From an uncultured Prevotella sp. (lineage in GTDB: Bacteria; Bacteroidota; Bacteroidia; Bacteroidales; Bacteroidaceae): DNA of 36,992 bases. A model generated the notes under the pieces. The model had not been told where the DNA came from. It was given only the letters and a program-made list of their open reading frames with translations, and made no database searches. The translations under genes were made by a program, and so were the position numbers. Positions 962 to 7,805 of the stretch are shown here, piece by piece (position 1 is the first letter of the stretch; the number at the start of each line of letters is the position of its first letter). The DNA lies in the NCBI GenBank assembly GCA_947095945.1, contig CAMUQM010000001.1, forward strand, positions 1 through 36,992. Direction: 5' to 3'.

Positions 962-2332
962 ATGCTTATGCATGGACATACAGATAACTATACTTTTCTG
1001 ACACAAGCTCCGGTTCATCGTGTGATTGTCACAATGGCTATACCGACGATTATATCAATGCTTGTAACGGGATTATACAATATTGCCGATACGTTCTTTG
1101 TTGGCAAGATTGATACACAAGCAACTGCAGCTGTGGGAATAGTATTCTCTCTAATGTTTTTCGTGCAGGCAATGGGCTTTTTCTTTGGGCATGGTTCGGG
1201 TAATTATATCTCTCGTGAGTTGGGAGCACGTCGCCATGAGAATGCTGTAAAAATGGCTTCCACAGGCTTTTTTAGCTCTTTCTTTTTTGGATTAGTCATT
1301 CTTATTCTTGGTGAAATATTCCTTACACCACTTTCGTTGATGCTTGGAAGTACGCCTACTATTCTTCCTTACACGGAAGACTATATGCAGGTTATTCTCC
1401 TTGGTGCACCTTTCTTGACTTCTTCACTTACCTTAAACAATCAGATGCGTTTACAAGGAAATGCTAACTTTGCGATGTATGGTATTGTGATAGGTGCTGT
1501 ATTGAATGTGCTCCTTGACCCTTTCTTTATCTTTACTTGTGGTTTGGGGGTCAGTGGTGCAGCTTGGGCAACAGTTGTAGGTCAGATTGTTTCTTTTGTT
1601 ATACTTTTCTTCATGGCACGTAGGGGAGAGAATATTGCTATCAAGTTTCGCAATTTTTCGCCTTCAATACAGATGTATAAGGAGATTTTCTATGGAGGTA
1701 GTCCTTCTTTTATGAGGCAAGGTTTAGCTTGTATTGCCACTATGTCCTTAAACTTAGCAGCTGGTGCTTATGGCGATTCTGCTATTGCTGCAATGAGTAT
1801 TGTCGGACGTATAGCAATGCTTTCTTTTGCTGTTGTCATCGGATTGGGACAAGGCTTTCAGCCTGTCTGTGGCTTTTGTTATGGTGCAGGCTTATATGAT
1901 CGTTTGAAGGAGGCCTATAAGTTCACGGTTACTATCGGTACTATTTTCCTTATTGTGTTGGCTATTGTTGGCTGGATGATAAGTGATTCGCTTATAGGTG
2001 TCTTCCGTGATGACCCTGAAGTGATAGCAATAGGTGTCGTTGCATTGCGCTGGCAACTTTGTGTTTTCCCTGTTAATGCACTTATTTTGGCAAGTAATAT
2101 GCTTGCTCAGACCTGTCGTAAGCCGTGGCGAGCTAATATCTTGGCTGCTGCTCGACAAGGTTTGTTCTTTATTCCGCTTATCTTTATTCTCCCATCTTAT
2201 TTTGGACTGTTAGGTGTAGAGATGTGTCAGGCAGTCAGTGACTTGCTTTCCTTTGTGCTTACAGTACCAATCGTTATTTACACTTTTCGTGAGTTTACAC
2301 GCGAAGCAGCAGAAAGGAAAGCATCCGTATGA
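962..2332 (+). CDS. MATE family efflux transporter
   Basis: About 12 hydrophobic helices; YNIADTFFVG, NVLLDPFFIF..GVSGAAWAT and GQGFQPVCGFCYGAG motifs. ATG 962 or 968 preferred over TTG 902 because the promoter lies at 934-941. Confidence 0.93.
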   Translation: MLMHGHTDNYTFLTQAPVHRVIVTMAIPTIISMLVTGLYNIADTFFVGKIDTQATAAVGIVFSLMFFVQAMGFFFGHGSGNYISRELGARRHENAVKMASTGFFSSFFFGLVILILGEIFLTPLSLMLGSTPTILPYTEDYMQVILLGAPFLTSSLTLNNQMRLQGNANFAMYGIVIGAVLNVLLDPFFIFTCGLGVSGAAWATVVGQIVSFVILFFMARRGENIAIKFRNFSPSIQMYKEIFYGGSPSFMRQGLACIATMSLNLAAGAYGDSAIAAMSIVGRIAMLSFAVVIGLGQGFQPVCGFCYGAGLYDRLKEAYKFTVTIGTIFLIVLAIVGWMISDSLIGVFRDDPEVIAIGVVALRWQLCVFPVNALILASNMLAQTCRKPWRANILAAARQGLFFIPLIFILPSYFGLLGVEMCQAVSDLLSFVLTVPIVIYTFREFTREAAERKASV

Positions 2333-2892
2333 GTACACTTTATATTAAAAATATGGTTTGTGACCGCTGTAAAATGGCTGTTAGCCAAACTTTGCAGCAG
2401 CTTGATTTACACCCAACAAAGGTGGAATTAGGTGAGGTTAGTATTGAAGAAGTCCCATCTTCATCCCAATTAGCTACCCTTCGGATAGTCCTTAAAGAGC
2501 TTGGTTTCGAACTTCTTGACGACCGTCGTCAGCAAACTATCGATCACATCAAGTCTGCTTTAATCAGACTTGTACATTACCATGATAATCAAAGTTCAAG
2601 CAATCTTAGTGATTACCTATCTTCTGAACTTCGTCAAGACTATAGTGCGCTTTCAAAGCTCTTTTCAGAAGTTGAGGGAAAGACCATAGAACGTTATTAT
2701 ATAGAATTGCGTATTGAGCGCGTGAAAGAACTTATCCGATATGACGAGTTGACTCTGACACAGATAGCCCTTCGTATGAATTATTCTTCTGTGGGCTATC
2801 TTTCCAGCCAGTTTAAGTCAGTAACGGGCATGACTCCAAGTCAATTCAAGTCGACGAAAAATATTCTTCGTACACCATTAGATAAACTTTAA
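2329..2892 (+). CDS. AraC family regulator with N-terminal HMA-like CxxC domain
   Basis: N-terminal IKNMVCDRC; C-terminal double HTH (LTLTQIALRMNYSSVGYLSSQFKSVTGMTPSQFK); ATGA overlap with the MATE stop. Confidence 0.9.
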   Translation: MSTLYIKNMVCDRCKMAVSQTLQQLDLHPTKVELGEVSIEEVPSSSQLATLRIVLKELGFELLDDRRQQTIDHIKSALIRLVHYHDNQSSSNLSDYLSSELRQDYSALSKLFSEVEGKTIERYYIELRIERVKELIRYDELTLTQIALRMNYSSVGYLSSQFKSVTGMTPSQFKSTKNILRTPLDKL

Positions 2893-3072
2893 GCTGTTCT
2901 TGCTAACGATAATCTTATAGTCTATAGATGAGCATAAGGTTTCTTCTTATGGTCATGGTGCGATAGAGAAGTGTATAAAGAGGCATTAGACGAGAGTTTT
3001 AATAGCGTAATACCGTACTGTTTGTAATAATATTTTACCCTTTGTTTTTTATTTAAGCGTTAATAACAGTTC

Positions 3073-3160
3073 AATTAAGCCTTAATTGGCTTCTAAAAGG
3101 GCATCTTTTCGAAGCTAACTAACGCCCTTTTGAACTCTAATTAAGCACCTTTTCTTGCGC
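3073..3160. repeat. 22-bp-period array of 15-bp quasi-palindromes (family A), 4 units
   Basis: Units at 3073, 3095, 3117, 3139: aattaagccttaatt-ggcttct / aaaagggcatctttt-cgaagct / aactaacgccctttt-gaactct / aattaagcacctttt-cttgcgc. Confidence 0.7.
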
Positions 3161-3385
3161 TATTTTATAAGTAATTGATAACTAGTTGGTTGCGAGGGCG
3201 GTTTTTAAGGGCTTTTTTTATATTTAAATGCAGAATGAGTTGTAGTCTTTGTAAATATATTTCGCAGTGTTCGTTTTGTGAAATCGCATACTTTTAAGAT
3301 GTGATGGTTGTTTTATTTATGTGCTAATACGATAAGTTATAATCTTTATCCATAATTTTATAAGGCTTCATATATAATATATGTT

Positions 3386-3393
3386 TAACTTTG
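3386..3393 (+). promoter_or_regulatory. -7 promoter element (TAACTTTG) for copZ-copA
   Basis: TAnnTTTG match about 50 nt before ATG 3446. Confidence 0.6.
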
Positions 3394-3445
3394 CAAGCAT
3401 CAAGTAAAGATAAACTTGTAGGGTATAATATTAATAGAAAGACTT

Positions 3446-3658
3446 ATGAAGAAGAATGTTTTTGCTGTAAGCGGTATGAAGTGTGTTCATTGTAAAACAA
3501 CAGTGGAGAATGCCTTAAGCGCTGTTGCAGGTGTTGAATCTGCTGAGGTTAATCTTGAAGATGCTAATGTTACAGTCGCGTATGATGATAGTAAGGTTAC
3601 TCCTTCTCAACTTAAGGAAGCTGTAGATAACAGTGGACGTTTTGAGATGAGTCTATAA
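3446..3658 (+). CDS. copZ: Copper chaperone (single HMA domain)
   Basis: 70 aa, GMKCVHC metal-binding motif, directly upstream of a Cu-ATPase. Confidence 0.9.
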   Translation: MKKNVFAVSGMKCVHCKTTVENALSAVAGVESAEVNLEDANVTVAYDDSKVTPSQLKEAVDNSGRFEMSL

Positions 3659-3669
3659 TTGTTTATACT

Positions 3670-5589
3670 ATGAAGCAAACAATTCCTGTTATTGGCATGG
3701 CTTGTTCGGCCTGCTCTGCTAATGTCGAAAGGAGGTTGAACGAACTTGAAGGCATTAATTCTGCATCTGTTTCTCTACCAGCCCGTTCGGCTTTGGTAGA
3801 TTATGATCCTAATGTGGTATCGTTGGAGAAGATGAAGGCTGAAATCAATGCACTTGGCTATGACTTAGTGATTGATAAGGAGACGTCTGTAGAGGAGATT
3901 GAGAAACGTGAGTATGTTCAGTTGAAGCGTAAGACACTATTATCATGGTTGTTTGCAATCGCCGTGATGTGTGTGTCTATGAGGTGGATAGAGTTGGGCT
4001 CTCGCGATGTTGCCAATCAAATCTCATTATTGATAGCTTTGGCAAACATGCTTTATTGTGGTCGTCAGTTTTATGTTTCTTCGTTTAAGCAGTTGCTTCA
4101 TGGTTCTGCTAACATGGATACATTAGTGGCTTTGTCTACTGGTATTGCTTTCCTATTCAGTATGTTTAATACGTTTTGGGGCGATATTGTTTGGTCGAGT
4201 AGGGGAATTGTTTGGCACACATATTTCGATGCTTCGGTAATGATTATCACCTTCGTCTTGACAGGTCGGTTATTGGAAGAGAAAGCAAAAGACGGTACTG
4301 CATCTTCTATTCGTCAGATGATGGGAATGGCACCAAAGACTGCACACGTTGTTGATGGTGATAAGATAGAGGAAGTTCCGCTCTCAACGATTGAGGTAGG
4401 GGATGTCTTGGAGGTTCGACCCGGTGAGAAGGTGCCTGTAGATGGTGAGGTAATATGGGCAGAAAGCTTTATGACAGCTGATGCAGCATACGTTGATGAG
4501 AGTATGATAACGGGTGAACCGACCCCTGTAGAGAAGAAGAAAGGAGCAAAAGTGTTGGCTGGTACGATTCCCAGTCAAGGTAAGTTTCGTATGCGTGCTC
4601 GACAAGTTGGGGAAGATACAGCCTTAGCGCATATTATAAGAATGGTGCAGGAGGCACAAGGTTCTAAAGCTCCTGTACAGCGAATTGTTGATAAGGCGGC
4701 GTTGATTTTTGTCCCAGTTGTTGTTTGTATTGCTTTTACAACCTTTCTGTTGTGGTGGTTGATAGGAGGAAATAGTAATCTACCTCAGGCTATTATGTCA
4801 GCTGTTGCGGTCTTGGTTATTGCTTGTCCATGCGCAATGGGGCTTGCAACGCCAACAGCTCTTATGGTTGGTATAGGCAAAGCGGCTCAGAAGCAGATTC
4901 TTATTAAGGATGCTGCAGCCTTAGAGAGTTTGCGTAAGGTCAATGTGTTAGTGACAGATAAGACGGGAACTTTAACCATTCCTAATAAGAATATAAATTT
5001 TACGAAGGCTGATAATCTCCCTTTTGAGGAGCGAGAAACGTTAAAACCCAATGCGCAGGAGGCTATGGAAGCTTTGCAGAAACGAGGAATAGAAGTCTAT
5101 ATGATGAGTGGTGATAAGGAAGATGCAGCTTGCTATTGGGCGAAAAAGGCTGGAATTAAACACTATCATAGTAAGGTGTTGCCACAAGATAAGGAGAATC
5201 TTGTTAGGCAGTTACAGACTGAAGGAAAGCGTGTTGCAATGGTTGGTGATGGTATTAACGATACACAAGCTTTGGCTTTGGCTGATGTTAGTATTGCTAT
5301 TGGCAAGGGTACGGATGTTGCAATGGATGTTGCGCAGGTTACACTGATGGGAGATGACCTTGCGGCTATCCCCGATGCAATACAATTGAGCCGTAATACG
5401 GTGCGAATGATTTGGGAAAACCTTTTCTGGGCATTCATTTATAATATCGTCTGCATACCTTTAGCCGCTGGTTTACTTTATGTTTTCGGTATTGATTGGC
5501 AGATAACTCCGTCGTGGGCAAGTGCTTTAATGGCATTCTCCAGTGTCAGTGTTGTACTCAATAGTCTTCGGTTACGATGGATGAAGTAA
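3670..5589 (+). CDS. copA: Cu(I)-type P1B ATPase lacking the N (nucleotide-binding) domain
   Basis: HMA GMACSAC, actuator TGE, CPC, DKTGTLT, SGD, GDGIND, YN and MAFSS motifs all present; only 19 aa between DKTGTLT and ETLKP. Confidence 0.9.
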   Translation: MKQTIPVIGMACSACSANVERRLNELEGINSASVSLPARSALVDYDPNVVSLEKMKAEINALGYDLVIDKETSVEEIEKREYVQLKRKTLLSWLFAIAVMCVSMRWIELGSRDVANQISLLIALANMLYCGRQFYVSSFKQLLHGSANMDTLVALSTGIAFLFSMFNTFWGDIVWSSRGIVWHTYFDASVMIITFVLTGRLLEEKAKDGTASSIRQMMGMAPKTAHVVDGDKIEEVPLSTIEVGDVLEVRPGEKVPVDGEVIWAESFMTADAAYVDESMITGEPTPVEKKKGAKVLAGTIPSQGKFRMRARQVGEDTALAHIIRMVQEAQGSKAPVQRIVDKAALIFVPVVVCIAFTTFLLWWLIGGNSNLPQAIMSAVAVLVIACPCAMGLATPTALMVGIGKAAQKQILIKDAAALESLRKVNVLVTDKTGTLTIPNKNINFTKADNLPFEERETLKPNAQEAMEALQKRGIEVYMMSGDKEDAACYWAKKAGIKHYHSKVLPQDKENLVRQLQTEGKRVAMVGDGINDTQALALADVSIAIGKGTDVAMDVAQVTLMGDDLAAIPDAIQLSRNTVRMIWENLFWAFIYNIVCIPLAAGLLYVFGIDWQITPSWASALMAFSSVSVVLNSLRLRWMK

Positions 5590-5606
5590 AATGTTTTTAG
5601 CCTTAT

Positions 5607-5678
5607 ATAAAACAAATAGAGTTTACTAATTACCTGTTCAGCAATGCACTGTGGTAATAGTAAACTCTATTGTTTTAT
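5607..5678. terminator. Long hairpin, probable bidirectional terminator between convergent genes
   Basis: ataaaacaaatagagtttactaattacc ... ggtaatagtaaactctattgttttat. Confidence 0.7.
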
Positions 5679-5701
5679 GTGAACGAAAAGTTAGTATCTC
5701 T

Positions 5702-6571
5702 TTATCTCACTGGATAATCATACCGATTAGAATTGTAGAAACCATTGTGTTGTGTAGGGACATGGTCAAACTCTACGCTAACAGATATAGAATTCTGGTT
5801 CTTAGAGCCCCATTGATAGGTCACACCACCACCGATTCTATCCATATAGCGACTAACTCCAGCCCCATATGCCCATCCCATCGGACCATATCCGTATCCC
5901 ATTGAAGCATAACCATAGTCGAAAGGAGAATAACCCCAGCCACCATAGCCAGCCCAATAAGGTGATGCATAACCTCCATAGCCAAAGACTTGTCCGAAAT
6001 TGTTGGATGTAAAGGCTTTCTGTACGAAAGCGTATGCACTCCAATGTTCATTAAACTGATATCCAAGAACAGCATTGACACCTCCTACGAAGTAGTTATC
6101 TCCACGATAGGTAAGATGGTTTACATATCCACCAACAGCCAATGTAGCCTTCTTAGATAGGTTTGTTACATACATCAATGATACATCCTGAGAGAAGCCA
6201 GCACCATGATTGTTTCCGTGTCCAAAGCTTGCAAAGGCTGAAGCACTAAGGTTGATGTTCAATCCCTTATGTAATCTCCATGCTCCAACACCATAACCCC
6301 AAGCGGGATAATAGAAATCATTTGGTGTAACGGTTTGTCCGTTCTCTGTAATGAGAGGCAGGTTATTGTCAATCTGTGCCTGTTGTGCACGGTCTTCAGC
6401 CATACGTCTGGCATACTCCTTCTCTGCCTCTGTGGCTTCGCGTGGACCTTGTAGACGTGCTGACTCTATAGGCTCCACATTGGAAGTGTCCCCATTGTGG
6501 TTCCCTTTCGTATTCTGTGCATACAATGGTACACAGAGAATAGCTGCTATTATGAAACTATATTTCCTCAT
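5702..6571 (-). CDS. Exported hypothetical protein, probable beta-rich/outer-membrane protein with Gly/Tyr-rich segment
   Basis: Signal peptide MRKYSFIIAAILCVPLYA; alternating amphipathic strands (GVNAVLGYQFNEHWSAYAFVQK, IGGGVTYQW). Confidence 0.75.
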   Translation of the reverse strand: MRKYSFIIAAILCVPLYAQNTKGNHNGDTSNVEPIESARLQGPREATEAEKEYARRMAEDRAQQAQIDNNLPLITENGQTVTPNDFYYPAWGYGVGAWRLHKGLNINLSASAFASFGHGNNHGAGFSQDVSLMYVTNLSKKATLAVGGYVNHLTYRGDNYFVGGVNAVLGYQFNEHWSAYAFVQKAFTSNNFGQVFGYGGYASPYWAGYGGWGYSPFDYGYASMGYGYGPMGWAYGAGVSRYMDRIGGGVTYQWGSKNQNSISVSVEFDHVPTQHNGFYNSNRYDYPVR

Positions 6572-7640: not shown

Positions 7641-7660
7641 AGCTCTTTGTTTTGTTCTTA

Positions 7661-7805
7661 ATGCAAAGATAGTGCCAGCAAGTGCAATGAAAGTTTACTT
7701 TCTTATTGTCGAGCGCAGCCTATCTTATGCAAAGATAGTGCCAGCAAGTGCAATGAAAGTTTACTTTCTTATTGCCGAGCGCAGCCTATCTTATGCAAAG
7801 ATAGT
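7661..7805. repeat. 66-bp tandem duplication (2 units plus 13 bp) containing three minus-strand TATCTTTG promoter motifs
   Basis: 7661-7726 and 7727-7792 differ at one base; atgcaaagatagt recurs at 7661, 7727, 7793. Confidence 0.95.

Follow-up and report, generated by a model that had tools for sequence, protein, structure and literature searches.

P-type ATPases are taught as four-part machines composed of a membrane part and the actuator (A), phosphorylation (P) and nucleotide-binding (N) domains, the last of which brings adenosine triphosphate (ATP) to the catalytic aspartate. The present study concerns a copA-like gene encoded on a 36,992-nucleotide stretch of an uncultured Prevotella sp. 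(contig CAMUQM010000001.1 of assembly GCA_947095945.1, positions 1 to 36,992; hereafter the window), in which this fourth part is missing. The described systems to which its product is compared are the CopA-type P1B-1 Cu(I)-ATPases, including those of A. fulgidus (3j09) and L. pneumophila (3rfu and 4bbj), 7r0g and human ATP7B (7xuk), with 38–43% identity over the aligned parts and whole-model Z-scores of 26–34. Common to all are the HMA domain, the membrane helices bearing CPC, YN and MxxSS, the A-domain with its TGE motif, and a P-domain with DKTGT, S/TGD and GDGxND. In contrast to these ATPases, the Prevotella protein has a 19-residue linker in place of the N-domain (about 96–105 residues, with HP and GxG motifs), an extra seven residues before TGE, a Glu instead of the hinge Asp, and a Pro instead of the Gly that lies past DKTGTLTx.

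Two further comparisons are relevant. Capless KDO-8-P and KDN-9-P phosphatases (4um5, 4hgn and 3e81; 160–170 residues) share with the pump a Rossmann-like core with a minimal insert past motif I. They are, however, soluble enzymes with 15–18% identity to the pump, whose domain is membrane-anchored beside an A-domain, and the likeness does not imply a phosphatase substrate. In passages of a paper on SERCA (de Meis 2012, PMC3366780), acetyl phosphate is given as a substrate for Ca2+ uptake by this pump, an example of phosphorylation and transport driven by a small acyl phosphate in vitro in SERCA and other P-type pumps. SERCA-type pumps possess the N-domain that the protein described here lacks, and their cellular fuel is ATP; acetyl phosphate use by the Prevotella protein is something we only infer. 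No description of a P-type ATPase without an N-domain was found in the full-text literature searched, most subscription journals and supplements being outside its scope. Prevotella and Segatella copri are dominant in the human mouth, gut and rumen. In passages of a recent survey (PMC13207848), Prevotella copA is tallied as an ordinary copper-resistance determinant, and this ordinary-copA assumption of resistance surveys may not hold for the N-less gene.

Architecture of the N-less pump

On sequence grounds, the open reading frame is by descent a CopA-type P1B-1 copper pump. Pfam places an E1-E2_ATPase domain at residues 220–408, the CxxC of the HMA domain, IYN and MAFSS are all legible in the translation (Table 1), and the codons of DKTGTLT at 4957–4977 read gat aag acg gga act tta acc. 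The membrane signature of CPC, YN and MxxSS is one that we take to denote P-type subgroup 1B-1. The NCBIfam model TIGR01511 was matched with a score of 510.9 bits against a cut-off of 397, the match being broken into two stretches, and the score for the CopA equivalog NF007952 fell short (478 versus 1316). By its sequence the protein is a CopA-derived, N-domain-less variant rather than a canonical member, since it lacks the N-domain, a feature by which P-type ATPases are defined.

The N-domain is truly absent from the Prevotella-group pump. When compared with solved structures using phmmer, pump residues 1–459 corresponded to residues 2–437 of A. fulgidus CopA and residues 455–636 to 533–712, leaving ~96 residues of the A. 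fulgidus protein, its N-domain, unmatched by the pump. Pfam PF00702 ('Hydrolase') covers pump residues 452–539 by profile positions 93–191 of 191 only. The distance between DKTGT and GDGxND is 96 residues, compared with 181–219 in 16 full-length P1B ATPases drawn from relatives and from the window's own genome, and the N-domain slot holds 19 residues compared with about 100–120 in relatives. The gene was followed through a species-level set comprising the best 80 of 316 related stretches, obtained by scanning one genome per species. Across these 80 loci the same distance was 96 residues in 74 and 97 in six, no [S/E]xHP motif occurred between DKTGT and GDGxND in any of them, and the linker and hinge conformed to the consensus [ILV]PNxx[IV]DFT[KQR]...L..E.RE.LKP. 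Translation, CopA alignment and the half-match to PF00702 thus agree with the sequence-only reading, an earlier annotation made from the letters of the window, in which the N-domain was said to be replaced by a 19-residue linker in an open frame; its listing of HMA, TGE, CPC, SGD, GDGIND, YN and MxxSS as intact is confirmed by the pump translation. One locus of the same genus (L016; G020:C229) carries a 31-residue insertion within the linker, after the conserved PNxxIDFTK, and has a DKTGT–GDGxND distance of 127.

An AlphaFold2 model of the pump, based on an alignment of 126 sequences, had a predicted local distance difference test score (pLDDT) of 87.8 and a predicted template modelling score of 0.82. 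The linker was modelled as a short strand (436–438) and two helices (444–449 and 452–455) with pLDDT 76–88. The whole model aligned with 7xuk over 627 residues (Z 34.5, root-mean-square deviation (rmsd) 3.9) and with 7r0g over 548 residues (Z 33.3, rmsd 3.2). The modelled P-domain superimposed on CopB-B (2yj4) over 160 of 252 residues at 1.3 Å, the remainder of the 2yj4 chain being the N-domain. Residues 405–565, a 161-residue segment of P-domain plus linker, folded alone with a pLDDT of 90. A fold search with the P-domain against 48,161 representative chains returned the P-domains of P-type pumps as best matches (Z 17–22), and the next, as whole-chain matches, were the capless KDO-8-P and KDN-9-P phosphatases, namely 4um5 (Z 16.3, rmsd 2.6, 143/172 residues), 4hgn (Z 16.0, 143/165 residues) and 3e81 (Z 14.9, 137/164 residues). 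The domain has the motifs of a capless (C0) HAD core (D430xT432, S480, K508 and GDGIND) and no cap domain at the C1 site, in terms of the HAD cap classification reportedly set out by Burroughs et al. 2006. Judged from the model, the catalytic module is in effect now a capless HAD domain.

Spread, selection and remodelling of the N-less lineage

The 80 loci belong to Prevotella, Segatella, Hallella and Hoylesella, type strains included, and the gap is present in all 80. Species represented include Prevotella denticola, P. histicola, P. multiformis, P. pallens, P. corporis and P. disiens, as well as Segatella copri, S. bryantii, S. salivae, S. baroniae and S. paludivivens. At least 120 protein clusters, counting that of the query itself, were listed by a word-indexed protein search; all are 639 residues long, with 92–100% identity and from many independent contigs, and the names attached to some of them are Prevotella jejuni or uncultured Prevotella. 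When the GTDB family was searched with a 62-residue peptide that bridges the junction, full-length matches were obtained in 43 of 401 genomes, distributed over 10 of 35 genera, with 18/24 positive genomes in the genus of the window and 0 of 23–24 in several other genera. An ESM Atlas search recovered the 639-residue clusters of the pump itself and ordinary CopA clusters, and nothing else. Sequencing runs were screened as well; none contained more than 0.12 of the sampled words.

Selection was assessed on an 80-sequence alignment consisting of the window and 79 of the 80 loci (L102 was left out). The ratio of nonsynonymous to synonymous substitution rates (dN/dS; Nei-Gojobori) ranged from 0.016 to 0.163 in 26 independent, non-overlapping pairs with dS from 0.02 to 1.4. 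The pooled ratio of nonsynonymous to synonymous differences (pN/pS) was 0.092 for the 19 linker codons, compared with 0.108 for the whole gene, and mean column conservation was 0.82 in the linker versus 0.83 in the whole protein. Residues D430, K431, T432, G433, T434 and K508 were invariant over 126 N-less and full-length sequences, as were the five specified residues of GDGxND, and the reading frames of the related N-less loci were all open. The low dN/dS and the constraint on the linker indicate that protein and linker are both functional. In agreement with the sequence-only reading, the linker is a conserved element and does not represent a raw deletion junction; that reading had also proposed looking across Prevotella for N-less orthologues of ~640 residues under purifying selection, and N-less genes were found at all 80 loci.

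The origin of the lineage was examined using a FastTree phylogeny of 126 sequences from which the N-domain and linker columns had been taken out. The 56 Prevotella-type sequences formed one clade (support 100, stem 0.33) that branches from within the full-length CopA proteins of Bacteroidales. A further phylogeny of 51 sequences (IQ-TREE quick) was concordant and required four changes of the N-less state, at least three of them forced by well-supported branches. Positions were regarded as clade-fixed if found in ≥95% of the 56 clade sequences and rare in the 68 full-length sequences. The A-domain insertion at 267–273 is present in the 56 clade sequences and is a gap in 68/68 full-length sequences, as it is in the phmmer alignment with CopA; G264A is fixed alongside it, before the TGE loop. 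Past the phosphorylation site, the Gly following DKTGTLTx, invariant in full-length proteins, is replaced in the clade (G438P), the linker residues N439, D443 and T445 are clade-fixed, R455 is invariant in the N-less clade, and position 456 is E in 56/56 clade sequences and D in 68/68 full-length sequences (D456E). Y489 and W490 are also clade-fixed. The motif II residue is S in 56/58 N-less sequences, compared with T in 46/68 and S in 22/68 full-length sequences. The clade-fixed changes suggest that substitutions of a compensatory or adaptive kind became fixed where the A- and P-domains meet and at the active-site mouth, with stasis thereafter, and the seven-residue A-domain insertion may compensate for the lost N-domain.

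Sequence comparisons indicate that in-frame N-domain loss is recurrent in Bacteroidales CopA, with only the Prevotella-type lineage demonstrated to be old and constrained. The other N-less proteins (the P0186 cluster, P0163/P0406, P0132 and P0336) share with it the in-frame loss from DKTGTLT to the hinge D/E-x-x-K, but differ in having other linkers of ~3–40 residues, in lacking the A-domain insertion, and in their separate origins in the tree, and most are singletons. The sole established-looking one is P0186/P0390, the P0186 cluster comprising 706-residue proteins with 40 members on many contigs. P0132 has one member, and DKTGT is missing too in P0213. P0336 has a partial deletion; its distance from full-length proteins of Phocaeicola sartorii is no more than 0.0014, and it is therefore a very recent variant. 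P0163/P0406, with a linker of ~3 residues and two members, was considered as a family and rejected, P0163 being a two-member oddity among 737-residue proteins.

Proposed energisation of the pump and competing explanations

We place at about an even chance the proposal that the Prevotella-group protein descends from CopA and works as a Cu(I) transporter, its aspartate being phosphorylated in the absence of an N-domain or adenine pocket. A single ancestral in-frame deletion would have taken out the N-domain with its nucleotide-binding function, and the two hinge segments that remained would now form a small conserved cap over a P-domain of the capless HAD type. That the aspartyl-phosphate cycle has been retained along with copper translocation is argued by the invariance of the residues for phosphoryl transfer, the loop for dephosphorylation, the copper site in the membrane and the HMA domain. 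In this cycle D430 would be phosphorylated and the TGE loop of the A-domain would dephosphorylate it, and copper would be handed over by CopZ and the HMA domain and then pass through the CPC/YN/MxxSS site. The usual high-affinity binding of ATP by a P-type ATPase is impossible without an adenine pocket. Because this pocket is lacking, the phosphoryl group would be taken up directly at the P-domain, and a small donor acting there would be the simplest way out; phosphate uptake by the Prevotella-group pump thus probably proceeds in a manner that has not been described for this pump class. The most plausible donors would be small acyl phosphates, acetyl phosphate among them, or else ATP or pyrophosphate (PPi) that is weakly bound and offers its phosphate tail; of these, we slightly prefer acetyl phosphate or something like it to weak use of ATP. 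Arg455, which is invariant, and the polar residues of the linker are candidates for binding an anionic donor, or ATP or PPi by its phosphate tail. In these fermenters acetyl phosphate would be supplied via Pta-AckA, and adjacent pta-ackA genes were found in four of four complete relatives. We infer copper transport, D430 phosphorylation and the identity of the donor from sequence.

A narrower form of the proposal, in which CopA of the Prevotella group would be a naturally occurring P-type pump independent of nucleotide binding and phosphorylated by acetyl phosphate or another non-adenine donor, is possible but to our minds doubtful. If true, copper export would be coupled to the acetyl phosphate that fermentation provides, the P-type transport cycle would not require the N-domain, and the repeated N-domain losses in Bacteroidales CopA would reflect a shared permissive physiology.

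Several observations weigh against a working transporter of this kind. The genome of the window is only 77% complete. Pta-AckA is present in Bacteroides thetaiotaomicron too, which was included as a control, and the CopA proteins of named Phocaeicola and Parabacteroides among the search matches are full-length (736–737 residues); the donor argument is therefore not clade-specific, and Pta-AckA is evidence of donor availability rather than of donor use. The junction peptide had no match in 6/24 genomes of the genus of the window, and 9/24 same-genus genomes gave only weaker, Zn/Cd-type or other P-type matches, so that the gene appears to be dispensable in many species. The case of P0336 indicates that in-frame N-domain loss can be a mere strain variant and may amount to loss of function. 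The literature searched contained no experiment on any member of the clade.

The chance that we are dealing with a pseudogene in decay, an artefact of assembly or a deletion confined to one strain is negligible. Sporadic N-domain deletions do occur in other Bacteroidales CopA as singletons or tiny clusters (P0336, P0132 and P0213), but the at least 120 clusters of 639 residues at 92–100% identity come from independent contigs, the gap recurs in every one of the 80 species loci, type strains included, and dN/dS is about 0.1 in both gene and linker. Decay and artefact were accordingly ruled out by spread, purifying selection and open frames. The sequence-only reading had argued against decay, a view that holds given the dN/dS values and the presence of the catalytic motifs in 80/80 sequences, and the two outcomes that it had named as fatal, a deletion unique to this assembly or strain and relaxed selection across the gene, were not seen. 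Its supporting point, that a chaperone and a regulator are retained, stood for the chaperone, a CopZ-like open reading frame ending within about 200 nucleotides of the pump frame in 66/80 loci, but not for the AraC-type regulator, which adjoins the pump in 28/80 only. It is improbable, though less so, that the protein is conserved but non-energised, serving to carry Cu(I) in a gated manner, to sense copper or to store it at the membrane; in variants of this explanation the P-domain would be reversibly phosphorylated by inorganic phosphate only, or would act as a copper-controlled phosphatase on a small phosphoester, as capless HAD enzymes do. A non-pump role is favoured by the lack of an adenine pocket, by a P-domain and linker with the size and fold of capless HAD phosphatases and by the many same-genus species without the gene, and D456E, the change of TGD to SGD and the invariant R455 could mark a new substrate. 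However, the TGE loop, CPC, YN, MxxSS and all phosphoryl-transfer residues are kept as in pumps, CopZ is still the neighbour in 66/80 loci, and an invariant A-domain dephosphorylation loop would be needless for a mere carrier or store.

A further explanation, which we hold to be very unlikely, retains ATP as the fuel and supplies the N-domain in trans, either through a hetero-oligomer with a Zn/Cd-type ATPase or through an unrelated nucleotide-binding partner. One Zn/Cd-type P1B ATPase with a full N-domain was present in all five genomes tested, and in the KdsC family capless HAD enzymes use a cap contributed by an adjacent subunit. Besides the N-less protein, a 625-residue Zn/Cd-type pump (SCPC/STHP) with a full N-domain is the only P-type ATPase found in the genome of the window, and the relatives G009, G012, G002, G023 and G022 (~99% complete) each carry, in addition to the N-less gene, one of Zn/Cd type and one longer P-type gene (875–974 residues), with no second CopA in these five genomes; the apparent lack of another copper pump favours the working-transporter proposal. 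Against supply in trans, a profile built from 14 N-domains and run in all six frames over the window's genome (G000) and four 99%-complete relatives (E up to 1) matched only the N-domain of the Zn/Cd-type pump itself, and no free-standing N-domain was found in these genomes, although an unrelated fold would escape such searches. A single N-domain query of the window's genome gave a chance-level match inside the pump itself (E 0.165), and no conserved candidate partner gene lies beside the pump. A free P1B-type N-domain recruited in trans, one of the options raised from the sequence, is therefore unsupported by the profile search. The sequence-only reading had offered three more without a preference, namely a different mode of nucleotide binding, a small phosphodonor and a role other than pumping.

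An old, large and selectively maintained N-less clade constitutes a natural experiment on the necessity of the N-domain, and is of high interest for P-type ATPase research. If the protein is a pump, a P-type cycle would be driven without an adenine pocket, and a minimal pump of ~640 residues would be available for structural work; if it is not, it would represent a new non-pump use of the P-type scaffold.

Genomic context

The coordinates of the pump gene, its motifs and two upstream genes are given in Table 1.

Table 1 Features of the N-less copper-pump gene and its upstream neighbours in the window
Feature	Position	Strand	Evidence
AraC-family regulator, HMA-like N-terminus (MVCDRC)	2329..2892	+	Pfam HTH_18, E 5.7e-17
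copZ-like copper chaperone, 70 residues	3446..3658	+	Pfam HMA, E 7.7e-18
copA-like gene, 639 residues, putative P1B-1 copper pump without N-domain	3670..5589	+	Open reading frame
HMA metal-binding domain, N-terminal, residues 4–65, GMACSAC	3679..3864	+	Pfam PF00403, E 2e-14
Seven-residue A-domain insertion, residues 267–273, FMTADAA, just before TGE loop, clade-specific	4468..4488	+	Alignment
TGE dephosphorylation motif, T281–E283	4510..4518	+	TGEP in 74/80, SGEP in 6/80 sequences
CPC metal site in membrane, C386–C388	4825..4833	+	80/80 sequences
DKTGTLT phosphorylation motif, D430	4957..4977	+	DKTGT[L/I]T in 80/80 sequences
19-residue linker in place of N-domain, I437–R455, IPNKNINFTKADNLPFEER	4978..5034	+	Translation
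ETLKPNA, resumption of P-domain; hinge Asp replaced by Glu (E456)	5035..5055	+	Alignment
SGD motif, HAD motif II (S480; TGD in most relatives)	5107..5115	+	MSGD in 80/80 sequences
GDGIND Mg/phosphate site	5245..5262	+	GDG[IV]ND in 80/80 sequences

Neighbours other than CopZ were common to only 6–31 of the 80 loci. In the AraC regulator, encoded upstream of copZ-copA, the ~70 N-terminal residues include a weak HMA match at residues 3–26 (E 0.025), and the protein could be a copper sensor. A scan of 2800–5800 for promoters and terminators gave results at chance level. Downstream of the pump, positions 5702–6571 on the minus strand encode a 289-residue Gly/Tyr-rich protein with a signal-peptide-like start, which had no Pfam match at E up to 1 and is found in 31/80 related loci. 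At two of the related loci (L088 and L102), the 4-kb flank of the N-less CopA includes a Zn/Cd-type P1B ATPase with a full N-domain and an S[ST]HP motif, encoded by a frame of 683 residues. Intergenic positions 7656–7805 of the window consist of a tandem repeat with a 66-bp unit, present in 2.3 copies at 97% matching.

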